Shown: one piece after another, positions 7,211 through 64,000 of the stretch
Layout of the letters: each line of letters starts with the position of its first letter
Position numbering within the stretch: position 1 is the first letter of the stretch
Source of the DNA: an uncultured Planctomycetota bacterium
GTDB taxonomy: Bacteria; Planctomycetota; Planctomycetia; Gemmatales; Gemmataceae
DNA: 64,000 nucleotides
Reading direction: 5' to 3'
Assembly: GCA_963849325.1 (NCBI GenBank)
Contig: CAWKHF010000005.1
Coordinates: 960,001 to 1,024,000 of the forward strand
Made by a program: the position numbers and the translations under genes
Notes under the pieces: generated by a model
Seen by the model: only the letters and a program-made list of their open reading frames with translations
Told to the model about the DNA's origin: nothing
The model's database searches: none

Positions 7211-7361
7211 CCGGCCGGGTGTAACCCAATTCTCTGGGGGTGTCGGCGCCCTTGTAGGGTGGGTCGAGGGCCGCGAGGCCCACCATGCCCGCATGGTGGG
7301 CCTCGCGGCCCTCGACCCACCCTACCCCCGGCCCCCAGAGATTCGGGTTACACCCAGCCGG
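7211..7361. repeat. Nested palindrome: GTAG-type REP pair (7254-7325) inside a second ~30-bp inverted repeat (7211-7240 / 7332-7361)
   Basis: GTAGGGTGGGTCGAGGGCCGCGAGGCCCACCATGC and its exact reverse complement; outer arms CCGGCCGGGTGTAACCCAATTCTCTGGGGG / CCCCCAGAGATTCGGGTTACACCCAGCCGG. Confidence 0.9.
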
Positions 7362-16367: not shown

Positions 16368-16492
16368 AAGAAGGCCGGCCTGATCCTCTCGGTTTTTTTG
16401 AGTAGGATGAATCCGGGTGACGGGACCGTTCCTCGCACGGCTCGCCGTCTCCCTCCTCGGATGTCCTCGCCAGGTTGACCGCGAAAGTTACC

Positions 16493-18063: not shown

Positions 18064-18150
18064 TAGGGACTAGGGACTAGGGACTAGGGACTAGGGACTA
18101 GAGAAGAAGAATCCTCTTCTCTAGTCCCTAGTCCCTAGTCCCTAGTCCCT
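18064..18150. repeat. Heptamer-armed stem-loop: (TAGGGAC)5 ... (GTCCCTA)n
   Basis: Tandem 7-mers followed by their reverse complement. Confidence 0.95.
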
Positions 18151-18168
18151 GCGAGGGGAGGATCGGCC

Positions 18169-20145: not shown

Positions 20146-20210
20146 GTTAGCCGCGACGCGCAGCGGAGCGCGGGAGCACTCCCGCGCTCCGCTGCGCGTC
20201 GCGGCGAAAC
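20146..20210. repeat. Family A palindrome
   Basis: Same arms as 255-317; between convergent genes. Confidence 0.93.
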
Positions 20211-26889: not shown

Positions 26890-27108
26890 CAAGCCGCTTG
26901 CGGCTTGGCGTGCGCCCCGCAGCGCTAAGTGCCTCTAATAAAATGAACCACAGATGAACACGGATGAACACGGATAAAAGACAAAATGAGAGAAAGACAC
27001 CGGAAAGGGAGCGTTCCTCGCTAGCGCTTTTCTTTTTGTTTTGATCCGTGTTCATCTGTGTTCATCTGTGGTTCATTATTTTACAGGTTATAAGCCGCAA
27101 GGGGCTTG
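26890..27108. repeat. Nested palindrome: 10-mer-armed stem-loop (26942-27077, unit ACAC[GA]GATGA) inside outer arms CAAGCCGCTTGCGGCTTG / TAAGCCGCAAGGGGCTTG
   Basis: AATGAACCACAGATGAACACGGATGAACACGGAT pairs with ATCCGTGTTCATCTGTGTTCATCTGTGGTTCATT. Confidence 0.88.
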
Positions 27109-30996: not shown

Positions 30997-31050
30997 TCCG
31001 AGCCTGAAGCGTAAGCGAAGAGCAACCTTCGCTTACGCTTCAGGCTCGGA
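30997..31050. repeat. Family B palindrome
   Basis: Perfect 24-bp arms. Confidence 0.93.
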
Positions 31051-35734: not shown

Positions 35735-36439
35735 ATGGCGACGCGATTGTGTTGGTTGGGACATGCGTGTTTGCTGCTGGAGAGCGACGGCAAGCGGGTG
35801 CTGATCGATCCGTTCCTCACCGGCAATCCCTCGGCGGCGATAACGGCCGACAAGGTGCCGGCCGATTTTATCCTCGTCTCGCACGGCCACGGCGATCACG
35901 TCGGCGACACCGTGGCCATCGCCAAGCGCACCGGCGCGACCGTCATCGCCAACTACGAGATGAGCGAGTGGTTCAAAAAGCAGGGAGTGAAGAACGTCCA
36001 CGGCCAGCAGCACGGCGGTGGACATGCTTATCCGTTCGGCCACGTCAAGCTGACGTTGGCCTTCCACGGCTCGGCGCTGCCCGATGGCAGCTACGGCGGC
36101 AATCCTTGCGGTTTCCTCATCACCTTCTCGGACGGCACGCGCGTTTACGACGCCGCGGACACGGGTTTGTTCGGCGACATGCGGCTGATCGGCGAGGAGG
36201 GGATCGATCTGGCCGTGCTGCCCATCGGCGACAATTTCACGATGGGGCCGGGCGACGCCGTGCGCGCCGTGAAGCTAATTCAGCCGCGGCAGGTGGTGCC
36301 CATCCACTACAACACCTGGGAACTGATCGCGCAGGACGCCGGCGCCTGGGCCGAGCGCGTTCGCCGCGAGACGCAGGCCGAACCCGTCGTCCTCAAACCC
36401 GGCGAATGGGTCGATGTCCAGGCTCGGAAAAGGGAATAG
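35735..36439 (+). CDS. Metal-dependent hydrolase, beta-lactamase fold (UPF0173-like)
   Basis: WLGHA, IDPFL, SHGHGDH, LPIGDNFTM, PIHYNT. Confidence 0.92.
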   Translation: MATRLCWLGHACLLLESDGKRVLIDPFLTGNPSAAITADKVPADFILVSHGHGDHVGDTVAIAKRTGATVIANYEMSEWFKKQGVKNVHGQQHGGGHAYPFGHVKLTLAFHGSALPDGSYGGNPCGFLITFSDGTRVYDAADTGLFGDMRLIGEEGIDLAVLPIGDNFTMGPGDAVRAVKLIQPRQVVPIHYNTWELIAQDAGAWAERVRRETQAEPVVLKPGEWVDVQARKRE

Positions 36440-36493
36440 GGAATAGGAAAGACTCCTTGCCCCTATTCCCTATTCCCTATTCCCTATTCCCTA
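36431..36493. repeat. Heptamer-armed stem-loop (TAGGGAA)n / (TTCCCTA)n
   Basis: Between convergent genes; contains the TAG stop of the hydrolase. Confidence 0.92.
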
Positions 36494-36499
36494 GTTGAT

Positions 36500-39400
36500 T
36501 CAGTGCGCCATGCTGTCCGAGCCGGCGGGCGGCTCGCGATGGCCGTAGAGGCTGTACAGGATCGGCATGAGATAGCGCGTCAAAAACAGCGTCGTAATCA
36601 TGCCGCCGACGACGACGATGGCCAGCGGTTGCTGCGTCTGGGCGCCGATGCGCGTCGAGAGCGCCGCCGGCAGCAGGCCCAGGATGGCCGTCAACGCCGT
36701 CATCATCACCGGCCGTACCCGCTTCTCCGCCCCCTGCATGATGGCGTCGTGCAGCGGCAACCCCTGGGCGCGCAGCTGGTTGAAGTAGGAGATCATCAGC
36801 AGGCCGTCCATGATGGCCACGCCGAACAGCGAGATGAAGCCGACCGCCGCCGAGATGCTGAAGTGCGTGCCGGTCAACAAGAGCGCCCAGATGCCGCCCA
36901 TCGACAGGTCGAGGACGTTGGACAGCACCACGAAGGCGTCCAGAAATGAGTGGAAGGCCAGGTACAGCAGCAGGAAAATCAAAACCAGCGACAAGGGGAT
37001 GATGAACATGAGGCGGCCCTCGGCCTCCTCCATCTCCTCGAACTCGCCGCTCCAGATGGCCCGGTAAGGGGTCCGGAACAGCTCGGCCGACTTCTGCTGG
37101 GCCTCGGCCACGGTGCCGGCCAGGTCGCGGTTGCGCACGCTGAACTTGACGGCGATCAGCCGTTCACCCTGCTCGCGGTAAATCGTCGAGGCGCCTGCGC
37201 GGATGAAATGGCCTTTCGGGTCGGGCCGGCCTTGCTCGTCGAGTGGCGTGACGAAGTCTTGCAGCGGCCGCTGCGGATTCGCCGCCAGATAGTTCAGGGT
37301 GCCGTTCCACAAACTGCCGTGCAAACCCGGCATGCTCACACTGGTGCCGATGCTCGACAACCCCGTACTGCCGCCGGTGATCCGCGTCGGGGCGACGCCG
37401 GAGACGAAGCCCGAAGTCTGGTTGTTGCCGATGTCCACCGGGATGTTCAGGATGGTCTTCTCGCTCGCTCGCAGCGACTCCGGCCAGCGCAGGGTGAGGT
37501 CGAACTTCTTCTCGCCCTCGATCATGGTCGAGAACGGCTGGCCGCCCACCGCCGACTTGATGACGGTCAGCACGTCGTTATCGCTGGCCCCATACGTCTG
37601 ACACTTGTCGCGGTCGATGGGAAATTCCAGGTTCGGTTGGCCCTTGACGCGGAAGACGCCGACGTCCTCGATGCCGCGCACGTCCTTGAGGATGATCTGC
37701 AAGCGATCGGCCAGCTTCTCCAGTTCGTCGAGGTCCGGGCCGATGATCTTGACGGAGTTGTCGCCCTTGACGCCGGAGAGCGACTCCATGACGTTGTCGC
37801 GGATGTTCTGCGAGAAGTTCCAATCGACGCCGACGATCTTGAGGTTCAGCTCGTCGTTCATCTCGCGGACCAGTTCCGGCTTGGTCCGCGCTCGGCGGGT
37901 GCGGAACCAGCGGAGCCAGCCCGTCTGGTTCTTGAGCGCCGGCCAGTCGCGCTGCGGCTTGAGCGGCACGAAGAACTCGACGTTGTAGAAGCCGGTCGGG
38001 TCGGTGCCGTCGTCGGGCCGGCCGATCTGCGCCATGATCGCCTGGATCTCGGGGTAGGTCTGCATGATGAGCCGGGCGCGATCGGTCTGCACCGACACGG
38101 CATCGAGGTTGATGTTCATTGGGAAGGTGGCGCGAATCCACAGGTTGCCCTCTTCCAGTTCGGGCATGAACTCGCGGCCCAGCAACGGCAACAGCAACAC
38201 CGTGATGGCGATAAGGCTGCCCATGACCGCCAGCGTCGCCCAGCGATACTTCAGGCACAGCTCCAGCTGGTTGAGGTAGCGCGACTTGAGGACGCGGACC
38301 AGGAAGTTGTCCGGGACCGGCTCGAGCTTGCTGAAGAAGAGCAGGCACAGCACCGGGGCCAGGGTCAGGGCCAGAAGCAGAGCGCCGCCCAGGGCGAAGG
38401 CGTAGGTGTCGGCCATCGGGCCGAAGATCTGTCCTTCCGGGCCGCGCATCGTGAACAGCGGCAGGAAGGCGCAGACCATGATGAGCGTCGAGAAAAACAG
38501 GCTTTTCTGCACCTCGCCGCTGGCCCGGATAATGCGGTCCTTCAGCGGCAGTTCGGCGTACTCGCCGGAGCTGAGGTGGCGATAGATGTTCTCGACCATG
38601 ATGACCGAGGAATCGACGATGATGCCGAAATCGACGGCCCCGATGGACAGCAGGTTGGCCGACTTGCCGCGCAGGAACAGCATCGAGAAGGCGAACAACA
38701 GCGCCAGCGGGATGTTGATGGCCACGATCAGAGCGCTGCGCACGTTACTGAGGAACATGAACAGGATGACCGTCACCAGGCCCATGCCCAGGAGGAGGTT
38801 CTCTTGCACGGTCTCGGTGGTGACGTGGATGAGGTCGGTGCGATCGTAGTAGGTGTCGATTTTGACGCCGGGCAGCATCCGGCCGGGCTTCTCGTTGAGT
38901 TCCTTGATCTTGACTTCGACGTCGTGCAGGGCGGGCAGCGAGTCCTCGTTCTTGCGCAGCAGGATGATGCTCTGCACCTTCTCCGGCTCGCTGAGCCAGA
39001 CTACGTTGCCGTCGGCATCGTGGACTTCTCGGCCGTTGGCGTTCTTCTTCGGTTCGCTGTACATGACCCGGCCGAGGCGCGTCTGGGAAGCGACGACGAC
39101 GCCCTGCCGGCCGATGTCGGTGGCGTACTTGAGGGGGCCGCCCTCGACCACGTCCCCGACGCGGATGGGCGATTGTTGATTGATGCGATGGTGATCTGGC
39201 GGATGGCCCGGACGCGGCGTTCGTCCTCGCGGCGCAGGTAGTCGGCGGCGGCGCGGGGGTTGCTCGTGGCGAGCACTTCCGGGGCCTGCATGGGGTCGAT
39301 GCCGCCGCCGATCAGGCCGATGCCGCGCACGTTGAGGAGGTTGGGGCCGAGCTGGAGGTGTTCGCCGCCGACGTTGGCGTTGGCGTTGGCGATGGCGTTT

Positions 39401-40030
39401 TGCAGCTGCGACAGGGTGATGCCGTAGCGCCGCAGGCGGTCCGGGTCGGGACGGACCTCGTAGCGCTTGACGGTGCCGCCGCTGCTGGACACGTCGATGA
39501 TGCGCGGTACGCGCTTGAAGATGCGCTCCAGGCTCCAGTCTTGCAGCGCCTTCAGGTCGTTGAGCGAATAAATATCGCGGCCATGATCGTCCTTGGGTCC
39601 GGTCAGGGTGTAGCGGAGGATTTCGCCGGTCGGACTTTGCGGCGACAGGATCGGCAGGACGCCCGGCGGCAACGACTCGGTGAATTGCAGGCGGTTGATG
39701 ACCTCCTGCTTGGCCCTCTCGTAGTCGATGCCGTACTCGAACTGGTTGCGCAGGTGCGACAGGCCGAACAGCGATTTGGTCGCGCGTGTACTTCAGGCCG
39801 GGCATGCCGGCCAGCGTCACTTCCAGCGGGATGGTGACCTGGCGCTCGACCTCCTCGGCCGAGGCGCCGGGATACTGGGCGATGACCTCGACGATGGCCG
39901 GCGCCGGGTCGGGGTAGGCTTCGACGTTGACCTTGAAGAAGGCGTAGCCGCCGAAGCCGGCCAGCCCCGCCATGAGCAACAGGACGATGAGCGGATTGTT
40001 GACCGCCCAGGCGATGAGTTTGCGTACCAT
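36500..40030 (-). CDS. CusA/CzcA-family heavy-metal RND permease; two compensating frameshifts (~39780, ~39175), true middle in ORF 39001-39672
   Basis: EAYPD, EEVERQVT, GAVDFGIIVDSSVIMVEN, RPVMMTAL. Confidence 0.92.
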   Translation of the reverse strand: MVRKLIAWAVNNPLIVLLLMAGLAGFGGYAFFKVNVEAYPDPAPAIVEVIAQYPGASAEEVERQVTIPLEVTLAGMPGLKYTRDQIAVRPVAPAQPVRVRHRLREGQAGGHQPPAIHRVVAAGRPADPVAAKSDRRNPPLHPDRTQGRSWPRYLFAQRPEGAARLEPGAHLQARTAHHRRVQQRRHRQALRGPSRPGPPAALRHHPVAAAKRHRQRQRQRRRRTPPARPQPPQRARHRPDRRRHRPHAGPGSARHEQPPRRRRLPAPRGRTPRPGHPPDHHRINQQSPIRVGDVVEGGPLKYATDIGRQGVVVASQTRLGRVMYSEPKKNANGREVHDADGNVVWLSEPEKVQSIILLRKNEDSLPALHDVEVKIKELNEKPGRMLPGVKIDTYYDRTDLIHVTTETVQENLLLGMGLVTVILFMFLSNVRSALIVAINIPLALLFAFSMLFLRGKSANLLSIGAVDFGIIVDSSVIMVENIYRHLSSGEYAELPLKDRIIRASGEVQKSLFFSTLIMVCAFLPLFTMRGPEGQIFGPMADTYAFALGGALLLALTLAPVLCLLFFSKLEPVPDNFLVRVLKSRYLNQLELCLKYRWATLAVMGSLIAITVLLLPLLGREFMPELEEGNLWIRATFPMNINLDAVSVQTDRARLIMQTYPEIQAIMAQIGRPDDGTDPTGFYNVEFFVPLKPQRDWPALKNQTGWLRWFRTRRARTKPELVREMNDELNLKIVGVDWNFSQNIRDNVMESLSGVKGDNSVKIIGPDLDELEKLADRLQIILKDVRGIEDVGVFRVKGQPNLEFPIDRDKCQTYGASDNDVLTVIKSAVGGQPFSTMIEGEKKFDLTLRWPESLRASEKTILNIPVDIGNNQTSGFVSGVAPTRITGGSTGLSSIGTSVSMPGLHGSLWNGTLNYLAANPQRPLQDFVTPLDEQGRPDPKGHFIRAGASTIYREQGERLIAVKFSVRNRDLAGTVAEAQQKSAELFRTPYRAIWSGEFEEMEEAEGRLMFIIPLSLVLIFLLLYLAFHSFLDAFVVLSNVLDLSMGGIWALLLTGTHFSISAAVGFISLFGVAIMDGLLMISYFNQLRAQGLPLHDAIMQGAEKRVRPVMMTALTAILGLLPAALSTRIGAQTQQPLAIVVVGGMITTLFLTRYLMPILYSLYGHREPPAGSDSMAH

Positions 40031-40044
40031 CTGGATTTAGGGAC

Positions 40045-40132
40045 ATAGGGAATAGGGAATAGGGAATAGGGAATAGGGAATAGGTAGGAGCGAGGACTGC
40101 TTCTTCCCTATTCCCTATTCCCTATTCCCTAT
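40045..40132. repeat. Heptamer-armed stem-loop (TAGGGAA)5 / (TTCCCTA)4
   Basis: Between RND adaptor and permease; contains the adaptor stop codon. Confidence 0.93.
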
Positions 40133-41592
40133 TTGCCATTGGGTGATGCCTTGAAGTTGGCCAACTCCGCCGCCAGTTGCAGGTTGCCGGTGGTGACGAC
40201 TTCCTCGCCGGCGTGCAGGGGTCGAGCGCCGCGCTTCTTTTCGGCCTCGTTCGGCTCGGCGCGGATGAGGACGGTTTGACGGCCGCGCTGCACGACGGCC
40301 ACCGGACGCGGCGTGAACTCGCGGTGGGCGGTATCGACGGCGACGAGGACGCTGGCGGCGTCGCCTTCCTCGATCAGCGCCGACGACGGGATGGCGACCA
40401 GCGACGGATCGGACGGCAGATCGACGGTGGCCGCGATAAACTCGCCGATGAGCCGATCGCCGGGGTTGCGCAGCCAACCGCTGACTAGGCCGGTGTGCTG
40501 CGTCGGATCGATGACTGGACTGATGCGGTCAATCTCTCCCTCGATCGGCTTGTCGTCGCCGGCCCCGTCCAGGTGGACCTTCCAGCGCATCTGCTCCGGC
40601 TTGAGCCGGCGCAGGGCGGCGATGTCCTCCTCGTAGGCGTTGGCCATCACCTGCAAATGAGATAGATCGAGGACTTTGAACAGATCGGTGGTGTTATCGA
40701 CGACGTCGCCGATGGTGACGTTCTTCTCGACGAGGACGCCGTCGATGGGGGCGCGGATGGTGGTCTCGGCCCAGGTGCGTTCGACCTCGGGGTCCACGGC
40801 CCGATGTTCGGGGCGTTTCTTGTCGAGTTGGCCGCGCGCGGTGATGTCGGCCGCGTTCTGGAGGGAGAGCTTCTCGGCCTCGCGGCGGACAGCGGCGATC
40901 TCCGCCTCGGTCAGCCGGTACGAACGCAGCGTGCGCTCGGCCAGAGATACCTGGATGAGGTCGGCCGCCACGTTGCGGCGGGCGGCGTCGATGTCCGACT
41001 CCTTGATGATGCCGGGTTCCGCACGCAGATAGCGGCCCAGCAGTTTTTGATCGACTTCCAGGTGCGAGAGCGCATCGACAAGCTGGCTCTTCATGGCGCC
41101 GACGTCCTTGCTCCAGACGACGGCGAGGATCTGGCCTTTCTTGACGACATCGCCGTAACGCAGGGTGCCGGGATCGTCCGTTTTTTTGCTCATCAGGCTG
41201 GCCGGCAGCGCGGGGCCGATGCGCCGGCCGTTCGAGTCGGCCTTGCCGATGGAGACGACCTGGCCGGAGAAGAAGCACTTGATGCGGGCCAAGCGATTGG
41301 CGTCGAGCATGAGCGAGCCGCGCAGCCGCAGCGGTTCGGGCGGCGGAGCAGGCTGGACCGTGGTGGTTTGCACTTTCAGCGAGGTCGTGTAGTCGGCCGG
41401 TAGACGGAGGACGTCGGGGGAGCGCGCGTCCCAGCCGATGCGCGGCAGCAGGGCGCCCGGGGGCGACGACTCGGTCGCGTTGACCGGACGATACTTCACC
41501 CACAGAAAGAGTCCGGCCGCGATGCCGCCGAGCAGGAGGAGAGCGACGAACACACGGAGGAACGCTTTCACGATGGTGGAGGACCGGGACAT
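40129..41592 (-). CDS. RND efflux periplasmic adaptor (CzcB/CusB-like)
   Basis: N-terminal TM helix; GDVVKKGQIL; IRAPIDGVLVEKNVTIGD; AIPSSALI. Confidence 0.9.
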   Translation of the reverse strand: MSRSSTIVKAFLRVFVALLLLGGIAAGLFLWVKYRPVNATESSPPGALLPRIGWDARSPDVLRLPADYTTSLKVQTTTVQPAPPPEPLRLRGSLMLDANRLARIKCFFSGQVVSIGKADSNGRRIGPALPASLMSKKTDDPGTLRYGDVVKKGQILAVVWSKDVGAMKSQLVDALSHLEVDQKLLGRYLRAEPGIIKESDIDAARRNVAADLIQVSLAERTLRSYRLTEAEIAAVRREAEKLSLQNAADITARGQLDKKRPEHRAVDPEVERTWAETTIRAPIDGVLVEKNVTIGDVVDNTTDLFKVLDLSHLQVMANAYEEDIAALRRLKPEQMRWKVHLDGAGDDKPIEGEIDRISPVIDPTQHTGLVSGWLRNPGDRLIGEFIAATVDLPSDPSLVAIPSSALIEEGDAASVLVAVDTAHREFTPRPVAVVQRGRQTVLIRAEPNEAEKKRGARPLHAGEEVVTTGNLQLAAELANFKASPNGK

Positions 41593-41734
41593 AAAAATCC
41601 GATGGCAGGAGGGAGGTCACGCGCCAGCGTTGGCACACACCTTATGCTACGCTAACAATTAAACGGCGGTTCGTATAGAGAGTTCCGGCTTATCGGCGGG
41701 GCGCTCCGAGAATGTCTGGCGTGGGCGAAAGAAA

Positions 41735-41751
41735 AGCAAGGGCCATGCCAA
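41735..41751 (-). promoter_or_regulatory. Candidate sigma54 (-24/-12) promoter for the RND operon
   Basis: Minus strand reads TTGGCATGGCCCTTGCT (GG-N10-GC), about 140 nt upstream of the adaptor start. Confidence 0.55.
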
Positions 41752-42024
41752 TGGCCGGGTGGTCTCTTCGTCCAACTATCTTATCACCTAACTCCTTCAC
41801 ATAAAAGCCCCTGCGAAAGCAAGACCGCGATGACCGGCTGGACGGACGCCGCCGCGTGTGATCGCGGATCGGCCAGCGTGGCCGCTGTCCGATCAGAGGC
41901 AGTGGTCGGCCCACGCTCATCGCCCATCGCCGCAAGGGCGATTCGTGTTGACTCGGAAGGGCCGCGTTCTGTCTACTGGAGCTTCGCTTGCGGGCGGATG
42001 AGGGCCCGCGCAAGGGGATGACGC

Positions 42025-43272
42025 ATGGATGCGAACAGCGACAAGGGGCCGCGGGTGGTGCTGGTTCACGACTGGCTGACCGGCATGCGCGGCGGCGAGA
42101 AGTGCCTGGAAGTGCTGTGCCGTCGTTGGCCGCACGCTCGGCTGTTCACCCTGCTCCACCGCCGCGGCTCCGTCAGCGCGGCCATCGAGCGCCTGCAGCC
42201 ACGCACCAGCTTTCTCAACTGCTTGCCCGAAAACCATCGCTATTATCGCTATCTGCTGCCGCTCATGCCGGCGGCGGTCACGAGTTGGCGCCTGCCGCCG
42301 TGCGACCTGGTGGTCAGCTTCAGCCATTGCGTCGCCAAGGCCATCCGTCCACGCCGAATAGGGACTAGGGACAAGGGACTAGGGACTAGGGAAGAGACAT
42401 GGTCCCTGTCTTCCCTAGTCCCTAGTCCCTTGTCCCTAGTCCCTATTCCTCACGTCTGCTACTGCTTCACGCCCATGCGTTACGCCTGGCACATGCAGAG
42501 GGCGTACTTCGGAGCGGATCGCGTCGGCGGCGTCAAGGCGCGGGCGCTGGAGCGCGTCCTGGGCTGGCTGCGCCAGTGGGACCGGCGCACCGCCGACGGC
42601 GTGACGCATTTTTTGGCCATCAGCGAGACGGTGCAGCGCCGCATCGCCGAGTGCTACGGCCGATCCAGCACGGTTATCTATCCGCCGGTCGATACCGACT
42701 TCTATCACCCGGCGGCCCTGCCGCGCGAGGAGTTCTACCTGGCCGTGTCGGCCTTCGCTCCGTACAAGCGGCTCGACCTGGCCATCCAGGCGTGCAACGC
42801 CCTGCGCCGGCCGTTACTGGTCATCGGCGCCGGCCAGGACGAGGCGCGTTTGCGCGCTGGCGGGACCGACGATTCACTTTCTCGGCTGGCAGCCCGACAC
42901 GGTTATCCGCGACCACCTGCGCCGCTGCCGCGCTCTCCTTTTCCCCGGCGAGGAGGACTTTGGCATCGTGCCGGTGGAAGCGCAGGCGTGCGGCGCGCCG
43001 GTGATCGCCTTCGGCCAGGGCGGCGCCACCGAGACGGTCATCCCTCCCGATCGCCGCCGCGAGCCGACCGGCATGTGGTTCGACGAGCAAACCGTCGAGT
43101 CGCTGGCGGAGACGCTCGCCTCCTTCGAGGCGCGCCGAGCGCCTTCTCGCCGTCGGCGGCTCGGCGTCAGGCTCTGCGTTTCAACGCTCCGCGTTTCGCC
43201 GACGAGTTGTTCACCTATCTCGACAACGTACTGCAACCGAGCGCCGACTCGACCCGCCGACGGGCGGCTTGA
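42025..43272 (+). CDS. Glycosyltransferase family 4; frameshifts near 42855 and 43135; carries an in-frame palindromic insertion
   Basis: VHDWLTGMRGGEKCL, CYCFTPMRYAW, YPPVD, YKRLDL, EEDFGIVPVEAQACG. Confidence 0.9.
   Translation: MDANSDKGPRVVLVHDWLTGMRGGEKCLEVLCRRWPHARLFTLLHRRGSVSAAIERLQPRTSFLNCLPENHRYYRYLLPLMPAAVTSWRLPPCDLVVSFSHCVAKAIRPRRIGTRDKGLGTREETWSLSSLVPSPLSLVPIPHVCYCFTPMRYAWHMQRAYFGADRVGGVKARALERVLGWLRQWDRRTADGVTHFLAISETVQRRIAECYGRSSTVIYPPVDTDFYHPAALPREEFYLAVSAFAPYKRLDLAIQACNALRRPLLVIGAGQDEARLRAGGTDDSLSRLAARHGYPRPPAPLPRSPFPRRGGLWHRAGGSAGVRRAGDRLRPGRRHRDGHPSRSPPRADRHVVRRANRRVAGGDARLLRGAPSAFSPSAARRQALRFNAPRFADELFTYLDNVLQPSADSTRRRAA
42356..42448. repeat. 93-bp heptamer-armed perfect palindrome, in-frame within the GT4 gene
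   Basis: 40-bp arms 42356-42395 and 42409-42448 are exact reverse complements; 13-nt loop. Confidence 0.95.
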
Positions 43273-43514
43273 ATGCAGGCGCGATGTCCGCGCTCCGGAG
43301 AATCGCCTCATCGGCAGGGGATTGCCTCTTTTTTGGCACGCGAATGCTCGAAAGTGCGTCCCGCCGCGTAAGAAAGGGAGGATCCTCGCTTAAGCGGCGG
43401 ACTCCGATCTGCTCTATCCCATCTTTTTTCCCCAAAACACCCAAATTGACAAGTCGGCATCTTATTTGCTCCCGCTTTGCCCGGAAAATGCGGAGTTTTC
43501 GGAAAAGTTTTTAC

Positions 43515-43543
43515 TTGCCCTTTTCCCGGTAAGTAATTACTCT
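43515..43543 (+). promoter_or_regulatory. Candidate sigma70 promoter upstream of the YTV-type gene
   Basis: TTGCCC-N17-TACTCT in an AT-rich intergenic tract. Confidence 0.4.
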
Positions 43544-43610
43544 TTTCTCTGTGTAACCCAGCTTACCCAAACTAACTAGTCTGTCGGCAACTCGAAAAGA
43601 AGGGGAGGCC

Positions 43611-44636
43611 ATGAAACGACTGCTTGTCGGTGTAGCGGGACTTGCGCTGTTGCTCCAGGTTCCGGGGATGGCGTCGGCTGCCCATCGGAGCCGGGGCGGC
43701 TGCTGCGCCCCGACGTGCGGGTATGGCGGCGGATACGGCGGCGTGCAGTATCAGGTGTCGTACCAGCAGGTCAAACAGGTCGTCCACGAATGCGTGCCGG
43801 TGACGGAGACCGTCCAGCAGCAATGCACGGTCATGGTCCCGCACACTCGGCAGGTCGAGCAGCAATGCACGGTCATGGTCCCGCAGTACCGAACCGTCCA
43901 GCAGCAGTGTACCGTGTACCAGTGCTCCTACGTGCAGAAGCAGATCCAGCGGACAGTCTGCGTGCCGGTCTACAGCACGGTCGCGCAGAAGGTCTGGCAG
44001 TGCGTGCCGTCGTATCAGAACGTCCAGGAACAAGTAACCGTCATGGTGCCGCAGATGACGCAACAGCAGCGGCAATGCACGGTGTACGTGATGAAGCCGG
44101 TCACGCAGGTGGTGCCCTGCCAGATCACCGTCTGCAAGCCGCAGCTGGTGCAACTGCCGCCCAGCTGCTGCAACCCCTGCGGCGCCACCATCTGCCAGAT
44201 GGTGCCGACCGTCGAGACCATCAACCGCACCGTGACTACCTGCGTTCCCGAGGCCGTCACCCACAACTACACGGTCAACGTCTGCACCTACAAGCCGACG
44301 ACCCAGACCGTGACGCGCCAGGTCTGCACCATGCAGCAGGTCGAAAAGACGATCCAGGTGCCCGTCTGCACGATGCAGCAGCAAGTGCAGACCTGCACGG
44401 TGAACGTGCCGGTGACGACCCCCGTCGTGCGGAACTACAACGTGCAAGTCTGTGAGATGGTGCCGACCGTGAAGAAGTACACGGTCAACGTCGTGGAGTG
44501 CGTGCCGACGCAGCGCACCATCAACGTGCAGGTGGTCCGCTATCAGACCGTGGCCCGCGAGATCACGGTCAACGTGCCGGTGGTCACCTGCGTGCCATGC
44601 CCGGTCGTCACCTGTGCGCCGGGGTGCGTGTACTAA
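43611..44636 (+). CDS. Secreted Cys/Val/Thr/Gln-rich repetitive protein (YTV-type)
   Basis: GGGGAGG RBS; signal peptide; 14-aa repeats CTVMVPHTRQVEQQ / CTVMVPQYRTVQQQ; YTVNV motifs. Confidence 0.85.
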   Translation: MKRLLVGVAGLALLLQVPGMASAAHRSRGGCCAPTCGYGGGYGGVQYQVSYQQVKQVVHECVPVTETVQQQCTVMVPHTRQVEQQCTVMVPQYRTVQQQCTVYQCSYVQKQIQRTVCVPVYSTVAQKVWQCVPSYQNVQEQVTVMVPQMTQQQRQCTVYVMKPVTQVVPCQITVCKPQLVQLPPSCCNPCGATICQMVPTVETINRTVTTCVPEAVTHNYTVNVCTYKPTTQTVTRQVCTMQQVEKTIQVPVCTMQQQVQTCTVNVPVTTPVVRNYNVQVCEMVPTVKKYTVNVVECVPTQRTINVQVVRYQTVAREITVNVPVVTCVPCPVVTCAPGCVY

Positions 44637-44659: not shown

Positions 44660-44734
44660 CTCCGAGCCTGAAGCGTAAGCGAAGGGACGGCAACCGAAGG
44701 TTGTCGTCCCTTCGCTTACGCTTCAGGCTCGGAG
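44660..44734. repeat. Family B palindrome with internal CAACCGAAGGTTG hairpin
   Basis: Inverted arms between convergent genes. Confidence 0.93.
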
Positions 44735-44743
44735 GCGTTTGAC

Positions 44744-46175
44744 TCAAATCCAACGCTGTAACATCTCCTGCAGGACCGTGCTCCAGCTGTCGAGTGGGTC
44801 GTCGCCGATCACTTCGACGTTCGCATTATTCAGGACGGGGCGCGGGCCGTCGATGTGCAGGTGGTCCACCACGGTATCGCTGGCCTTCATCTCCCGCGGC
44901 CGGACGTCGATCAGAAGGGCATGGCACAGGCTGCGCCGCGCCCAGTTCGCGCAGAGGCTCACGATCGGCTCGGCCCCGATTTTCTCCAGCCGCACCGAGC
45001 CGTTGGCGATCTCGTCCATCAAGAGCGAGGCGAGCAAGTCGCGCTCGGCGGCCAGCGCGTCGTTGTCGCCCTCGGCGACGAACAGGAAGCGGAACGACAG
45101 GGCATCGGCGCTCAGCCACTCGGTCAGTTTGCGAACCGTCACGTACAGCAGGGCCAGCAAGAGGACGCCGCGCTGGAACTCCAGGCCGCGGTCCTTGAAG
45201 CGCGTCTGGTCCAGGTCGGGGTAGAGCACGAAGACGAAGGTCCGCCTTCGACGGAGGAACTGGTTTTCGTCCCGTGCGTAATAGAGCAGTTCGTCGCGCA
45301 CGAACTTGATGTCGAACAGGTCGGGGCGTTCGTCCTTCTCCATGTAGGCCGAGCTGGGAGTGCAGCAGACTCTCGACGCTGCCGCGCGTCGAGAGGGACG
45401 TGAAGCCGCCGACGGGATAGGTGTCCTCGTCGAGGATGCGCGTGGGCACTTCCTGGCGCTGCGCTTGGGGGCGGAGACGATGGCGCGGCAGGGTCGCCTC
45501 CAGCAGACCGGCGGCGCGCAACACCTGGCGCTCGGCCAATTGCTCGCCCTCCGGTTTGAGGGCGGTGCCGCGCTCCAACTGCGAGATGTCTTCCGCTCCG
45601 AGTATCTCGGCGGTTCGGCGGACGGCGGCAATCAGCATCTCATACTGCGGCACCAGCGCGGCTTGCAGTCCGTCGCGGCCAAGGGACTCGAAGCCGCGAG
45701 CATGCACTTCGTCGGGCGGTGTTTCCAGGACGGCCTTGATGACGCCGGGACTGAGGCGGACGCCGTCGAAGCCGGAACGCTCGGCGAACTGGCGGAAGAG
45801 GAAAGCCAGTCCGCGCGACTGCTTTCGTCCCTTGTAGCGCCGCAGGGCGTCGCCGGCCCGGCTGAACGTCCAGTCGGCGTAGAACTTGCCGAGGACGTGG
45901 TCCTCGTAGGTGCGCAGCAGGTTAACGGGCAGGGCCGGCACGGTGAGGACGTCGCGGACGGCGGGCGCTTCGTGGTCCTGGCCGAAGGCGACATGGCCGA
46001 GGTCGGCCAAAAAACCCGGCGGCGGCAGGTCGTGGCCGCTCGACGCGATCTCCAACGCCCATTCCAATACCTCGCGCACGTGCGCCGGACGCGGCGGCGT
46101 CACCCGCTGCCACCACAGGCCTTGCAGCAGGAAACGGCGGGCCTCGTCGGAATCGCGCAGTTCGTATCGACTCAT
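44744..46175 (-). CDS. Hypothetical protein; frameshift near 45350
   Basis: ORF 44826-46175 to ...ESLLHSQL joins AYMEKDERPDLF... in ORF 44744-45631; coding-like codon usage. Confidence 0.75.
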
Positions 46176-46196
46176 AATCCGCAGCCAGCCGTTCGA

Positions 46197-46262
46197 GTTT
46201 AGCCGCGACGCGCAGCGGAGCGCGGGCTTTTCCCGCGCTCCGCTGCGCAGTCGCGGCTAAAC
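46197..46262. repeat. Family A palindrome
   Basis: Same arms with one extra base in the right arm. Confidence 0.9.
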
Positions 46263-49252: not shown

Positions 49253-49373
49253 TCAGGGGTCAGGGGTCAGGGGTCAGGCTGCCGGCACCTGTTCTTCGAC
49301 CTCTGCCTCCTGATCGCTGACTCCTGACTCCTGATCGCTCACTCCTGACCCCGGACCCCTGACCCCTGACCCC
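49253..49373. repeat. Heptamer-armed element (TCAGGGG)n / (CTGACCC, CTGACTC)n overlapping the 3' end of the flippase-like gene
   Basis: Encodes GSGVRGPGSGVSDQESGVSDQE and the TGA stop. Confidence 0.85.
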
Positions 49374-50299
49374 TTCGGCTGAAAGCGCGGCGCCAGGCCG
49401 AAGAGATAGAAAAGTCCGCCGGCCAGGCTGGCGGCGGTGTAGACGGCGAAGATGAGCAGCGACAGCGTGACGGCCGACGCCGAGCTGACGCCCAGCGGGG
49501 CCAACAGCAGGACGGTGCCGCCCTCGCGCAGGCCCATGCCGTTGAGGCTGATGGGCAACAGCGTCAACATCGCCACCAGCGGCACCATGACGCCGTAATA
49601 CAGCGGCGGCACCGGCAAGCCCATGCCCTCGCCGATCAGCCACACCAGCACCACGTTGGCCAGCTGCACCACCAGCGACAGGGCGGTGATGAGGAACATG
49701 CCGCGACGGTCGCGCCGATACAGGTCGGCGCCGTCCAGCAAATGCGCCAGGCGTGGATGGGCCGGCAGCATCGAACGCAACAGGGGCAGGGCCGGCAGCG
49801 CCGCCAGGCCGAGCACGCAGGCGCCGCCCATGGCGGCCACGGTGGCCCAAATCCAGCCCGGCAACGCCGTCGGACAGCACAGTGTCGCCAGGCAGCCCAG
49901 ACCGATCAGCACCGCGAAGCCGTTGACGCGATCGGCCAGCACGCTGAAAAAGGCGGCCGTGCGCCGTCCCGTCGGCGGCGTCGGTCCCTCCAGTCGGCCC
50001 AGATACCAGGCGCGCACCACGTCGCCGCCGACCGAGGTGGGCAGGACGAGGTTGAAGAACATGCCGGTGAAGTAGTAGCTGAGGTAATCCCACCAGCGAC
50101 CGCCCAGGCCGAGCCGGCCAGCCAGGATCTGCCAACGCACGGCGCTGACGGCCTGCGCCAGCAGAAACAACGCCAGCGCCAGCAGCCAGTACGTCACGTC
50201 CAGCTGCGCGAAGGCCGCTCCCGCCTGCCGCCAATCGACGCGCCAGACGAGAAAGCCCACCAGGACGAGGCTGCCCAGCAGCCGCCAATACTTCTTCAC
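49274..50299 (-). CDS. Lysylphosphatidylglycerol-synthase-TM / flippase-like (UPF0104) membrane protein
   Basis: FFNLVLPTSVGGDVVR; LPISLNGMGLRE. Confidence 0.88.
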   Translation of the reverse strand: MKKYWRLLGSLVLVGFLVWRVDWRQAGAAFAQLDVTYWLLALALFLLAQAVSAVRWQILAGRLGLGGRWWDYLSYYFTGMFFNLVLPTSVGGDVVRAWYLGRLEGPTPPTGRRTAAFFSVLADRVNGFAVLIGLGCLATLCCPTALPGWIWATVAAMGGACVLGLAALPALPLLRSMLPAHPRLAHLLDGADLYRRDRRGMFLITALSLVVQLANVVLVWLIGEGMGLPVPPLYYGVMVPLVAMLTLLPISLNGMGLREGGTVLLLAPLGVSSASAVTLSLLIFAVYTAASLAGGLFYLFGLAPRFQPKGSGVRGPGSGVSDQESGVSDQEAEVEEQVPAA

Positions 50300-54465: not shown

Positions 54466-54633
54466 AGAGATTCACCACGGAAAACACGGAAAACACGGAA
54501 AAAAGACAAATAATAGAGAAAACAAGATACCAAGAATGAGGCCCGAGACACCCAGCAATCCCGCTCCGCCTGGTGGGTTATTCTTGTTTTGTTTTTTTTT
54601 CCGTGTTTTCCGTGTTTTCCGTGGTGAATCTCT
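54466..54633. repeat. 9-mer-armed stem-loop (CACGGAAAA)3 ... (TTTTCCGTG)3 between rny and ymdB
   Basis: AGAGATTCACCACGGAAAACACGGAAAACACGGAAAAAA and its reverse complement. Confidence 0.93.
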
Positions 54634-55459: not shown

Positions 55460-56311
55460 ATGGTTGAGAACGCACCGATCCTGTCCTGCCAGCACGCCGG
55501 TCTGACCATCGAGGGCTACTCGCGGGCGGCCGTGCAGTCGTACTGGCGCATCCCCGAGCTGAAGATCGGCTTCGACCTCGGCGCGCAGCCGTGGGACTTC
55601 ATGGGCACGCCGACCTGGCTGGTGACGCACACGCACCTGGACCACGTCGCCGCCCTGCCGGTCTACGTGGCTCGGCGGCGCATGATGCGCATGGAACCGC
55701 CGACGCTGTACGTGCCGGCGCCGGCCGTCGAAGACCTGCGCCGTCTGCTGCTGGTCTTCCAGCGCCTCGACCGCGGCCGCATGATCTGCGACCTGCGCGG
55801 CGTCAACGCCGGCGACGAGATCGAACTGTCGCGCGATCACGTCGTCACCGCCTTCGCCACCACGCACACCATCCCGTCGCTGGGCTACGTCGTCTGGGAG
55901 CGCCGCTTCAAGCTCAAGGAGGAGTATCACGGTCTGCCCGGCGAGAAGATCCGCGACCTGCGCCTGTCCGGCGTGGCGGTGACGCGCGAGGTGCGCACGC
56001 CGTTGGTGGCCTACACCGGCGACACCAGCCCCGGCGGCATGGACGCCTATCCGCCCGTTTTCGAGGCCAAGATCCTTATCACGGAGCTGAGTTTCATCCG
56101 GCCCAACCACCGCCGCGAGAAGATCCACAAGTTCGGCCACATGCACCTGGACGACTACATCGAGCGGGCCGACCGCTTCCAGAACGAACTGATCATCTGT
56201 GCGCACCTGAGCACGCGCTACCATCCGCAGGAAGTCAAGCGCATCGTCGAGTCGAAACTGCCGCCGCAGCTGCGCCACGCGCGTCCGCCTCTGGCTGTAA
56301 AAAAGTTCTGA
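55460..56311 (+). CDS. Metallo-beta-lactamase-fold hydrolase, RNase Z-like
   Basis: [32 protein letters not shown]. Confidence 0.85.
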
Positions 56312-56400
56312 GTTCTTCAGTTAGCCGCGACGCGCAGCGGAGCGCGGGAGTCTTCCGCGCTCCGCTGCGCGTCGCGGCTAACCGAAGAACTCCGAACTTT
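56302..56400. repeat. Family A palindrome with ~19-bp extended outer arms
   Basis: AAAGTTCTGAGTTCTTCAGTTAGCC... pairs with ...GGCTAACCGAAGAACTCCGAACTTT. Confidence 0.92.
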
Positions 56401-58229: not shown

Positions 58230-58302
58230 TATCCGAGCCTGAAGCGTTAGCGAAGACAACCTTCGGTTGTCGCTCTCTTCGCTTACGCTTCAGGCTCGGA
58301 TA
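58230..58302. repeat. Family B palindrome with internal GACAACCTTCGGTTGTC hairpin
   Basis: Inverted arms; internal hairpin is the reverse orientation of the one in 44660-44734. Confidence 0.92.
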
Positions 58303-59816: not shown

Positions 59817-60686
59817 ATGACGGATCGATTCACCCGACGTTTCCGGGTGCGCCATTACGAGCTGGACGCGACCGGCCGGGTCGGCGGCGTGGTCCTCGTC
59901 CGCTACATGCAGGAGGCCGCGATCGAGGCTTCCACCGCCCTGGGCTTCAGCCCCGACTGGTATCAGGAGCACGGCACCGCCTGGGTGGTGCGACGGCTCT
60001 CCGTTCGTTACTTCGCCCCGGTCGGCTACGGCGAGGAGGTCGCCGTCGCCACCTGGCTCTCGACGCTGCGCGGCGTCCGCTCCATCCGCGAGTATGACGT
60101 GACGCGCAGCCGCGACGGCGCCCGCGTGGCCCGTGGGCGGGCCGAGTGGGTTTACATCGACGTGCGGACGGCCCAGCCGATCCGCTTCCCGGATGCCTGG
60201 TCGGAAGCCTTTCCTCGACCCGCCACGGCAGAGGATCTCGGTATTCGTCTGGTCGATGCGCGACCGACCGCGAACGCTCACCGCTACACGAGCCGGCGCA
60301 CGGTCCAGTTCCACGATCTGGACGCGGCCCAGCACGTCAACCACGCAATGTATCTGCAATGGGCGGAGCAAGCTCGTCTGGACGCCCTTCGCGCCGCGGG
60401 CCATCCACCGGAGCGTGGCCAGCGCGAGGGATGGAGTGTGCTCCAGGCCGGACGCGAAGTCCAGTATTTCGCGCCGGCGCTGGACAACGACAACATCGAG
60501 ATCGTCAGCTGGCTGCACGAGACAGCGGGAGACGGCTGGGCGTGGACGCAGGAGATCTGCCACGCCGACACGCGCAAGTTGCTGGTACGCGAGTATTCCG
60601 TCGGGACGTTCGTGGACGCGGAAGGCAAATCGATCGCGCCGCCCCAGCAGGCCATCGAAGACGTCCTTCGCGGACCCGCAAAGTAA
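59817..60686 (+). CDS. Acyl-CoA/acyl-ACP thioesterase (double hotdog fold)
   Basis: VRHYELDATG; DLDAAQHVNHAMY. Confidence 0.88.
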   Translation: MTDRFTRRFRVRHYELDATGRVGGVVLVRYMQEAAIEASTALGFSPDWYQEHGTAWVVRRLSVRYFAPVGYGEEVAVATWLSTLRGVRSIREYDVTRSRDGARVARGRAEWVYIDVRTAQPIRFPDAWSEAFPRPATAEDLGIRLVDARPTANAHRYTSRRTVQFHDLDAAQHVNHAMYLQWAEQARLDALRAAGHPPERGQREGWSVLQAGREVQYFAPALDNDNIEIVSWLHETAGDGWAWTQEICHADTRKLLVREYSVGTFVDAEGKSIAPPQQAIEDVLRGPAK

Positions 60687-60688
60687 TG

Positions 60689-62025
60689 TTATTGATGTTT
60701 CGGATCGATGCGGTGGATGACCTTGGAAGCTTCGCCGCGAACCATCGCGTCCTTGTCCTGTGCCAGCTGCTCCAGCAACGGGATCGCTTCCTTGGCCGGA
60801 GGACCGATTTCCCCCAAGGTCCAGAGGAGTCCGACGCGGCCATAAGGGGTCGCCGTCTTGAAGCGCTCCATGACCGGCTTAACGGCAGCGGGGCCGATTT
60901 GAGCAAGCGTCTGGCAGAACCCGAATCGATGCCGGCCGAATTGAGGATCGACCAGCCAGGTGATAAGTTGCGGAATGGCCGCCTTGGCGCCGGAGCCGAT
61001 TTCGCCGAGGGTGGAAAGAGTTCGGGAGCGGACGCGGATTGGCGTGTCTGGATCGCCAAAGAGGGCGAGAAGTGCCGGCACGGCTTCCTTGCCGTCTGGC
61101 CCCATCGCTCCAAGAGCCTGGAGAACGGAGTCCACTATTCGCAAGGGCAAGGACGTATCCGGGACGGGATTGACATCGCGGACGTCCAGGGCTTTCAGGA
61201 GATGGGGGATGGCCGTCTTGGCGTCCGGCCCCATTTCCATGATGGCCCTGGCCACGACATTCCGAATCCCCTCTTCTTTTTTATCTCCCAACATGCGGAT
61301 CAAGAACGGCACAACCTTGTCGGCGTTCGTGCCGATCTTGCCCAAGGAGTTCAGAGAATAGATGCGCAAAGTGCGGTCCTGGGAAGTCCGGATTACCTCC
61401 ATGAGGGCCGGAACGGCATCGCGTGCCCCACGGCCGAAACCGCCCAGGCGCGCGCGGCAGCCTGGGAAAGAGGCATCTCGTTTGGATCCTCGGTGCGATC
61501 GTCTGATTTCAAGGCTTCGATAAGCGCGGGAACGGCGTATCTGGGCTGCTTTCCAATGGCGCCCAATGCGTGTGCCGCTGCTCGGCGAAGAGCCATGTCT
61601 TCATCGTAGATAAGGATCTTGGCCAATGTAGACGAACCGCCGCCCCTTGGACCGATTAGGCCGAGAAGAGTGATACACTGTAACCGTACCCGGCGGTTCT
61701 GTCCTGGCTTCGTAAGGACAGTGGTCACAGAAGAGGCATCAGCGGAAGGAGAGCGATAAGCCGAAGTTAAGGTCGATAAAGCCGAGAGAGCCTCAAAGCG
61801 AATCTCTTCCTCGCGATCCAACAGCCCCTCCCGTATTACCATCATCGCTGGCCGCACGTTCTTGGCTATCGAAGTCATCTTCTTCATGGCAGCCAGGCGC
61901 TCGGCGGGACGAGACTTTAAATACTCTTTCAGGAGCCGTTCGACATCGGTCTCCTCTGCTGAAACGCAGGCCGAAGAGCAGGCAAAGACGAAGGATAATA
62001 CCAGAGATTTGGGAAAAAAAACCAC
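60689..62025 (-). CDS. Secreted HEAT-repeat protein; frameshift near 61400-61450
   Basis: Signal peptide; repeated ALGAIG / AVPALIEAL / AIPHLLKAL / LGEIG units. Confidence 0.82.
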
Positions 62026-62052
62026 GTTATTACCTCCGCTTCGTAGTGGTCG

Positions 62053-63929: not shown

Positions 63930-64000
63930 CCTGATTGGGAGCTACGTCCGCTCGTCGAACAACACGGCCGGCAACTTCGCCCGCTCCCCGCCTGTCCTCT

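Follow-up and report, generated by a model that had tools for sequence, protein, structure and literature searches.

Short palindromic repeats that lie in frame within genes are best known from Rickettsia, that is, from a reduced intracellular genome. In the portions of the literature consulted here, the Rickettsia palindromic elements (RPEs) are described as in-frame palindromes in unrelated coding genes that are read through and are compatible with the fold of the host proteins (PMC10969869; PMC3733652). The element reported in this work resides in a 64,000-nucleotide stretch of DNA from an uncultured planctomycete of the family Gemmataceae (assembly GCA_963849325.1, contig CAWKHF010000005.1, positions 960,001 to 1,024,000; hereafter the window), where a palindrome with arms of tandem TAGGGAC heptamers is inserted at positions 42356–42448 in an open reading frame (ORF) for a glycosyltransferase without closing it. 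The original prediction for this DNA had compared the palindrome with RPEs, and the comparison is apt: in both cases a palindrome stands in frame in a conserved ORF, is apparently read through and occupies a fold-compatible position, here a loop. The likeness drawn here concerns architecture. RPEs form families of about 100–150 bp with conserved sequence and peptide and are restricted to Rickettsia, whereas the element at 42356 has tandem heptamer arms, a unit that varies between copies, and a stop codon that needed to be removed; the host also differs, being a free-living planctomycete with named orthologs of the glycosyltransferase from Gemmataceae metagenome-assembled genomes (MAGs) and a G+C content of 64.8% in the window.

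Comparable tandem heptamers occur in cyanobacteria as STRR sequences. Xanthomonas and Nostoc carry G-rich GGGNATC heptamers, which include 70–75 convergent, stem-loop-capable array pairs per Xanthomonas genome, are mostly intergenic and near stop or start codons, are under-represented in coding DNA (7–11% overlap an ORF) and, in Xanthomonas, form quadruplexes in vitro, according to the part of the report available to us (PMC4692102). The window element shares with these pairs the tandem G3 heptamers, the number of at least four units and the close convergence of two arrays, and the other copies in the window likewise adjoin stop or start codons. Unlike the Xanthomonas repeats, the window units read GGGACTA and GGGAATA when rotated and do not match the consensus, and other window elements use units of 9 or 10 nt or units that are not G-rich. 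In-frame read-through, stop avoidance and recurrent loop insertion are not described in the sections of that report drawn on here (PMC4692102). A second dispersed, stop-giving tandem heptamer is the TAACTGA direct repeat of marine Beggiatoaceae and cyanobacteria, which yields stops in all three frames in one orientation and is located mostly between genes, sometimes over ORF ends or inside ORFs in its stop-free orientation (PMC4679880). Unlike the window element, it forms direct arrays, with one indirect repeat in the BOGUAY genome, and these are not hairpins; insertions into loops of conserved proteins are not described in the portion of that source used here.

Among hairpin-forming repeats, the RAYT-mobilised, GTAG/CGTC-tagged REP and REPIN sequences are short, abundant and also present in Planctomycetes, as far as the consulted part of the source goes (PMC3733652). 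They resemble our element as short hairpin-forming chromosomal repeats, and two REP-like families also occur in the window. The 42356 element differs in its tandem-repeat arms and in the absence of a GTAG or CGTC tag from both of its ends, and a Pfam scan of 59 coding segments of the window returned no transposase family, Y1 included. [quoted passage not shown] Like them, the element has terminal inverted repeats, namely its 40-nt perfect arms; unlike them, it lacks a target-site duplication and a known parent insertion sequence and is smaller than their usual range. Heptamer-armed inverted repeats as such are known from Xanthomonas (PMC4692102, in the part seen), while we found no description in the open-access literature, supplements excluded, of such elements in planctomycetes or of a translated, stop-repaired and recurrent heptamer hairpin.

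The palindrome and its place in the glycosyltransferase

The two arms (Table 1) are completely complementary over 40 nt each and stand 13 nt apart, such that the perfect 40-bp TAGGGAC inverted repeat foreseen inside the glycosyltransferase gene is confirmed. Folded as RNA, the element reaches −85.2 kcal/mol compared with −37.3 ± 3.6 kcal/mol for shuffled versions (n = 200, z = −13.4), none of which folded as stably. The double unit TAGGGACTAGGGAC was matched 15 times in the window with at most one mismatch (0.01 expected; 15 matches in none of 100 shuffled windows), and all of these matches are confined to two elements, at 18064–18151 and 42359–42445. The sense strand of the left arm contains five GGG tracts, and a (G3N4)x5 motif can be read from the letters of the element. 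Towards its ends the stem departs from the pure unit (GAAT/ATTC and GGGAAGA/TCTTCCC). The element had been taken to be exactly 31 codons long. This is correct for its length, but not for its placement, as the element begins (42356) at the middle position of a CGA codon, nor for the net gain of the protein, which is 27 amino acids (81 nt). Translation of the host ORF runs through the element as ...AIRPRRIGTRDKGLGTREETWSLSSLVPSPLSLVPIPHVCYC... (in longer form RIGTRDKGLGTREETWSLSSLVPSPLSLVPIP), and ...EETWSLSSLVPSPLSLVPIPHVCYCFTPMR is an example of a tryptic peptide that would span the insert. The G+C content at third codon positions (GC3) falls from about 0.85 in the host gene to about 0.62 across the insert, which therefore does not share the codon bias of its host.

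No direct repeat is present in the flanks (CCACGCC and TCACGTC), and target-site duplications were absent by eye at five window elements. A phmmer search with the 32-residue element peptide against 1.84 billion representatives yielded no match at E ≤ 0.001, and no Rfam family was detected anywhere in the window at gathering thresholds. A function of the hairpin as a terminator was considered and rejected, since none of the six terminator-like sites in 41500–43600 coincides with the element, which has no terminator-like tail.

That the palindrome is an insertion is readily apparent from the orthologs. A protein search returned 7975 relatives; among the best 120 of these, which were listed, 9 lacked the CVAK or the PHVCY motif, leaving 111 in which the distance between the two motifs could be scored. 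Ortholog length is mostly 384–388 amino acids, and those with source names among the matches listed come from Gemmataceae MAGs. The motifs are 8–12 residues apart in 106 of the 111 proteins and 34–61 residues apart in the remaining five, namely in the window protein (36 residues), P0002, P0036, P0018 and P0011. A BLASTP alignment of the window protein with the insert-free ortholog P0004 has a single gap of 27 residues, within the expected range of about 25–31, and is otherwise 82% identical over the N-terminal 278 residues. As the gain is 27 and not 31 residues, some outer bases of the stem may be host sequence, or host codons may have been replaced. A separate search for short forms of the protein gave 952 matches; none of the 120 listed carries a stop-bearing heptamer element at the insert site, which says little, as they are mostly fragments ending at contig ends.

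As modelled by AlphaFold, the insert of the window protein (residues 111–140) is located between helix 101–106 and strand 143–147 and is devoid of secondary structure, with values of the predicted local distance difference test (pLDDT) of 59/50/62 as compared with 78 and 83 in the flanks. In the model of insert-free P0004 (pLDDT 85, predicted template modelling score 0.86), which matches the GT4 enzymes MshA, PimA, PglA and BshA, the empty site is the coil 107–115 between helix and strand. Both Rossmann-like domains of a GT-B enzyme (Glyco_transf_4 and Glycos_transf_1) are present in the window; the N-terminal domain scores 32.2 bits in the frame-1 segment, and the C-terminal domain is recognised in a shifted frame only, with 59.6 bits. 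In the interpretation we favour, the insert would be translated as a disordered loop where the surface of the N-terminal Rossmann-like domain has a variable loop. The anticipated additional peptide loop is borne out by the position of the insert at a coil site and by the absence of an equally long loop in 106 of the 111 orthologs.

Stop codons, the mirrored base pair and the reading frame

A TAGGGAC array encodes the cycle stop-GLGTRD and its complement VPSP-stop-SL. Because 7 and 3 share no factor, the same cyclic peptide of seven residues results in all three frames, and three or more units therefore stop translation in every frame and on either strand. An unaltered TAGGGAC copy in the position of our element would stop translation once per arm. 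One of the five left-arm units is in phase with the ORF, at 42373, and reads AAG; one of the five right-arm TAG positions is in phase, at 42430, and reads TTG. The phases thus agree with the earlier proposal that precisely the in-frame TAG triplets are replaced and that the replacements still pair with each other. Both changes amount to one stem base pair, 42373/42431 (T:A to A:T), and putting T and A back restores two in-frame stops; the other two forward frames contain four stops each across the element. In one out of three frames relative to the centre of the palindrome, the in-frame TAG triplets of both arms fall on one and the same self-complementary CTAG of the stem. The element uses exactly this frame, and therefore one changed pair clears both stops and leaves the stem perfect. 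When the pure palindrome was restored by script and every single-base and every compensated single-pair change was tried, none of the 279 single-base changes and 6 of the 120 compensated changes opened the frame, all six at 42373 or 42374. The observed change is among the very few minimal solutions that open the frame.

A small baseline of 25 units is available from the window's three TAGGGAC/TAGGGAA elements between genes: 23 units are pure, and the other two stand at the outer end of an arm. The coding copy has its variant in the internal third unit of each arm. The sister element at 18064–18150 had been said to keep TAG throughout; this holds for all units (TAG or CTA) apart from the outermost right one, which reads GTCCCTG. 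Selection on both reading frame and symmetry had also been proposed. Selection on the frame is plausible; selection on symmetry is not required, because arm-to-arm templated correction of quasipalindromes would equally account for the mirrored pair. In this process, one arm of an imperfect inverted repeat serves as the template by which a base change is transferred to its partner, and a perfect palindrome results, as described in the part of the source available (PMC7202029). It would yield exactly the mirrored A/T pair seen at 42373/42431; it is a mutational mechanism and not a family of elements, and it may have acted here. In P0036, an apparently older insert at the same site, the ORF is still open although exact runs of arm peptide amount to no more than 4 and 0 residues.

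Frame 1 of the host ORF is the true frame over 42025–42858 and from about 43141 to 43272. For the stretch in between (LAGPTIHFLGW...EEDFGIVPVEAQ...FEAR), comparison of codons with orthologs indicates an apparent loss of 2 nt at 42857/58 and of 1 nt at 43141/42. This shifted segment is free of stops, has a GC3 near 0.9 and is identical to P0004 in 80 of 93 residues without gaps (86%). It contains the EX7E motif (EEDFGIVPVE), which lies in the +1 frame between the two frame changes and thus outside the frame of the ORF, likely as the result of an assembly error. The original prediction had named real downstream frameshifts together with a dead gene among the outcomes that would speak against it. 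The shifts are indeed present in the sequence, and one could argue that the glycosyltransferase gene has become a pseudogene and that the hairpin is open to translation by coincidence or as a remnant: there are two frame changes inside the ORF, residues 279–371 of the 415-residue product have a pLDDT below 50 in the ORF's own reading, and only the other frame yields the C-terminal Pfam domain. Segmentation of the window by GC3 phase, followed by Pfam analysis of the resulting 59 coding segments, however, uncovered at least seven mid-gene frame changes with intact codon bias in four genes (Table 1). Since at least seven shifts hit four genes within 64 kb, assembly error is the likelier cause, and we consider indel errors very probable. 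Simultaneous recent deaths of unrelated genes are implausible, the shifted segment retains its similarity to the ortholog and full codon bias, and only 5% of the compensated changes would open the frame. A dead gene therefore appears rather improbable.

Glycosyltransferases are classic phase-variable genes. It is therefore conceivable that the element is a regulatory device, either by phase variation of a surface-sugar enzyme through loss or gain of 7-nt units, or by a hairpin or G-quadruplex that slows ribosomes or directs cleavage by RNase. The unit length, which is not a multiple of three, the presence of five units per arm inside the ORF, the very stable stem and the quadruplexes formed in vitro by the Xanthomonas heptamers (PMC4692102, in the part seen) would fit such a role. 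However, similar inserts in proteins as diverse as kinases, transporters and SMC-like proteins, and in many further families (see below), speak against a function specific to this gene; most orthologs are free of inserts, the units of the other inserts are not G-rich, and the element has neither a terminator-like tail nor a match to an Rfam family. We regard a regulatory function as very improbable.

Inserts at the same loops and in unrelated proteins

The strongest new points of our analysis are that the same loops receive inserts repeatedly and that translated relatives are spread over a broad range of proteins. Four further orthologs contain peptides of heptamer-armed palindromes at the loop occupied in the window protein, built from other units (GATCCAC, AAATCCG). 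In P0002, the insert includes DPRSTIHDPRS, which corresponds to 11 exact residues of the GATCCAC cycle, and upstream of it a SWIV/WIVERGS stretch of the complementary cycle. P0011 and P0018 share KSEIRNPKSE...SDFGFRISDF, that is, cycles of AAATCCG and of its complement, and in P0011 the motif PRRG is present on both sides of the insert. The insert of P0036 appears to be a shortened and degraded version. As to the recency of the inserts, P0011 and P0005, which has no insert, share 96% identity, and P0018 and its insert-free relative P0022 share 97%. On a tree calculated by FastTree for the 60 closest orthologs, with the insert columns and the shifted part of the window protein excluded, the presence of an insert requires at least four changes of state, and the window protein and P0002 group together yet carry different units.

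Two more loops are affected. An insert after GGATETV is found in P0020 (unit TGGATGG) and probably also in P0090 and P0048, and one after AYFG in P0142 (unit CGAGGAT), which was met in the search for short forms. P0142 was the only protein returned by a scan of 240 proteins for strict 7-residue periodicity; as this proved too strict for short arms, exact-run matching was used instead. The three insert sites (107–115, 136–142 and 311–322 in the P0004 model) are all coil between secondary-structure elements. Most simply, the site shared among orthologs would thus be the outcome of a survival filter, by which insertions are kept only in tolerant loops, because the fold is variable at all three of these loops. 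The shared loop may alternatively reflect a structural target preference.

The 48-residue insert of P0011 was also used alone as a query. Out of 393 candidates, 52 proteins matched at E ≤ 10, and besides P0011 itself eight did so at E ≤ 0.001 (P0018 and seven others). Beyond the glycosyltransferases P0011 and P0018, the peptide of the AAATCCG element occurs in 50 predicted proteins (P0241–P0290), 47 of which contain exact 5-residue words of both arm cycles and 45 of which have Pfam domains of many unrelated families, including arginyl-transferase, SMC-like proteins, M56 peptidase, radical SAM, Ser/Thr kinases, esterase, outer-membrane factor and ABC transporter, among others. When P0011 and P0018 are included, there are 44 compact segments; 27 of them lie inside the protein, 15 begin no later than residue 12 and 2 extend to the C-terminus. 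In two Ser/Thr kinases the segment stands between PANILL and KI[TA]DFG. Many predicted N-termini begin with MKSEIRNPKSE and may be mis-called starts of ORFs over-extended into an upstream element. Nearly all segments share the irregularity KSE-x-N / FGF-x-SDF, which favours descent of the copies from one source element. The nearest Atlas clusters of the host protein P0243 are mostly from Planctomycetota, which is to be taken as a lead only.

With the anatomy of the element, its insertion relative to the orthologs, its placement in a loop and the repeated occurrence of comparable inserts established, we consider it fairly likely that 42356–42448 represents a hairpin repeat of the RPE type, read through within a permissive loop, which became readable by one compensated pair and is kept by purifying selection. 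The hairpin would be one copy of a class of small palindromes with short tandem-array arms, here of TAGGGAC, which entered a variable loop of a GT4-type enzyme and added a net 27 residues. A point mutation in one arm would have been copied to the other by template switching within the hairpin, or the variant would already have been present in the donor copy, and purifying selection on the enzyme would have retained only the open version with a length of 3n, the element itself conferring no function on the protein. The two downstream frameshifts would be assembly errors, and the apparent hot spot would consist of those insertions that survived in tolerant loops.

Several points weigh against this interpretation. 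The original prediction had called the element mobile; the TAGGGAC/TAGGGAA copies of the window show neither a target-site duplication nor a conserved terminus, and their centres differ, so that transposition of this family is no more than a possibility. Unless the variant was already carried by the donor, the sequence of events is difficult to envisage, because the gene would initially be inactivated by an insert containing two stops. The comparison of coding and intergenic copies extends over three window elements with 25 intergenic units, and read-through is predicted from the nucleotide sequence. The integrity of the glycosyltransferase depends on the two frameshifts being assembly errors; if the out-of-frame state of the catalytic EX7E region were real, no selection would act on the gene now. 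Finally, the translated inserts in other proteins are gene predictions, mostly metagenomic, and 15 of the 44 are N-terminal and possibly located in over-extended ORFs.

The apparent richness of the assembly in indel errors might raise the suspicion that the palindrome or its symmetry originates from assembly or from long-read chimeras. This we consider extremely unlikely, given that seven elements of like architecture are present in the window, that independent metagenome assemblies contain analogous inserts at the same site, and that a mirrored substitution is not an expected type of error. A bolder proposal, which we put forward tentatively and regard as less likely than not, is that heptamer-armed hairpins are a prolific, undescribed planctomycete class that repeatedly seeds new loops in conserved proteins and has reached the same permissive loops independently in different lineages, that their arms evolve in concert by templated hairpin repair, with one event clearing the stops of both arms, and that genes become switchable by 7-nt slippage as a by-product.

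If read-through hairpins were common in large genomes of free-living planctomycetes, they would be a general source of new protein loops, they would recurrently give rise to unusual low-complexity segments and to misplaced starts among protein predictions from planctomycetes, and they would constitute a natural experiment on how a repeat carrying stops is made readable. The mirrored pair offers a compact, testable case of either selection combined with concerted arm evolution or filtering of donor copies. In genome annotation, peptides of the types KSEIRNPKSE...SDFGFRISDF and GLGTRD/SLVPSP should be flagged as repeat-derived.

Related repeats in the window and in other genomes

Tandem Repeats Finder detected seven hairpins with tandem-array arms in the window (Table 1), in line with the predicted existence of such a class. 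The best explanation is that palindromes of this kind are abundant in this Gemmataceae-type genome. Two copies with TAGGGAC and two with TAGGGAA arms are present, all with different centres, and unit numbers are often unequal between the two arms of an element. Intergenic copies adjoin genes tightly. The sister element at 18064 begins 3 nt past the stop codon of the S13 peptidase gene and ends about 20 nt ahead of the next start. The stop codon TAG of the membrane-fusion ORF 40129–41592 (−) is the TAG of the last unit (40125–40131) of the 40038 element, and 8 nt separate the opposite end of this element from the start of the RND pump gene. In the 49253 element, the right arm together with the centre encodes the last approximately 30 residues (...KGSGVRGPGSGVSDQESGVSDQE...) of a protein of the LPG_synthase_TM family, and its arm has a super-period of 21 nt, as expected for a translated heptamer array. 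The hairpins at 26943 and 54476 have the inner core ACGGAnAAAAGACAAA in common and look like one family with differing arm unit length.

Table 1. Positions of the palindrome, its host gene, frame-shifted genes and related hairpins (window coordinates unless a locus is named)
Feature	Position	Strand	Details
Host ORF	42025–43272	+	415 amino acids (P0001), GT-B/GT4-type glycosyltransferase, Gemmataceae orthogroup
Palindromic element	42356–42448	+	93 nt; inverted repeat, RNA fold, translation in frame of host ORF
Left arm	42356–42395	+	GAA, then TAGGGAC, TAGGGAC, AAGGGAC, TAGGGAC, TAGGGAA, then GA
Spacer/loop	42396–42408	+	13 nt, GACATGGTCCCTG
Right arm	42409–42448	+	exact reverse complement of left arm
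Codon AAG	42373–42375	+	TAG in pure unit; phase 0; base 42373 pairs with 42431
Codon TTG	42430–42432	+	TAG in pure unit; base 42431 mirrors 42373
Shifted segment	42857–43144	+	true frame +1 relative to ORF, from ortholog comparison
Glycosyltransferase, frame change	42022–43180		continuous Pfam coordinates
S13 peptidase (D-Ala-D-Ala carboxypeptidase), three frames	16421–18057		Pfam coordinates 2–186/192–351/357–424
RND pump, three pieces	36503–40036		Pfam coordinates 2–80/82–219/272–786
ivWA protein, two pieces	44747–46256		continuous Pfam coordinates
TAGGGAC-armed sister element	18064–18150	.	intergenic; arms of 5.4 and 4.3 units
TAGGGAA-type element	36426–36493	.	between convergent genes
TAGGGAA-armed element	40038–40133	.	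fills spacer between membrane-fusion gene and RND pump gene
TCAGGGG-armed element	49253–49374	.	partly translated by ORF 49274–50299 (−)
Hairpin, 10-nt tandem units	26943–27076	.	ATGAACACGG
Hairpin, 9-nt tandem units	54476–54623	.	CACGGAAAA
Heptamer-armed hairpin outside planctomycetes	L099, 301–367		
Heptamer-armed hairpin outside planctomycetes	L114, 222–295		
Heptamer-armed hairpin outside planctomycetes	L054, 801–938		
Heptamer-armed hairpin outside planctomycetes	L077, 801–1074		

When contigs of a genome collection were scanned with the pattern AGGGAMNAGGGAMNAGGGAM (three TAGGGAM-type units), at least 125 loci were obtained. Among the matches listed (125 loci), the hosts are mostly cyanobacteria and Acidobacteriota, with none from Gemmataceae; 117 loci are unpaired arrays, and in 8 the two orientations are no more than 200 nt apart. 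Units of this type are therefore widespread, whereas their arrangement as a hairpin is a minority form in several phyla. Clear heptamer-armed hairpins are L099 from a Pyrinomonadaceae MAG and L114 from a Brevundimonas MAG. Together with L054 and L077, the hairpins outside planctomycetes have units GAGGGAC, TAGGGAC/T and AAGGGAA and stem from Pyrinomonadaceae, Brevundimonas and Cellvibrionaceae MAGs; the arms of L077 enclose a centre of about 230 nt with a palindrome of its own.

These arrays bear on the question of whether the element may have originated locally, with slippage creating an array at a fragile site and fold-back or template switching completing the palindrome in place, in which case the shared insertion site would be a mutational hot spot. 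The occurrence of heptamer arrays of this type in many phyla, mostly without a partner, is compatible with this scenario, as are the different unit per lineage at the same loop, the lack of target-site duplications, the unique centres and the unequal unit numbers in the arms of the intergenic copies, which slippage would produce. It is at variance with the 44 AAATCCG segments of unrelated proteins, whose common irregularity and layout point to one source, and with the inner core shared by the 26943 and 54476 elements despite their different unit lengths; furthermore, the three insert sites are variable loops, for which a survival filter suffices without a hot spot. A local origin is hence unlikely in our estimation, and a read-through repeat that entered the loop as a copy of a dispersed class remains our preferred explanation.

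Further repeats of the window are of other types. A REP-like family A with the core TTAGCCGCGACGCGCAGCGGAGCGCGGG and its complement is present in four copies (255–317, 4907–4977, 20147–20208 and 56302–56400), the last of which has short period-7-like repeats on its flanks, and a REP-like family B (TCCGAGCCTGAAGCGTAAGCGAAG and complement) in three (30997–31050, 44660–44734 and 58230–58302). Nested palindromes are found at 7211–7361, where a perfect 35-nt inverted repeat (7254–7325) is enclosed by a 30-nt pair with 90% complementarity. The last 3.3 kb (60668–64000) are non-coding according to the GC3-phase model despite long listed ORFs. Just downstream of the glycosyltransferase gene, at 43611–44636, lies a Cys/Gln-rich ORF without Pfam match that contains tandem repeats of 24/42 nt (CTVMVP...QQ).

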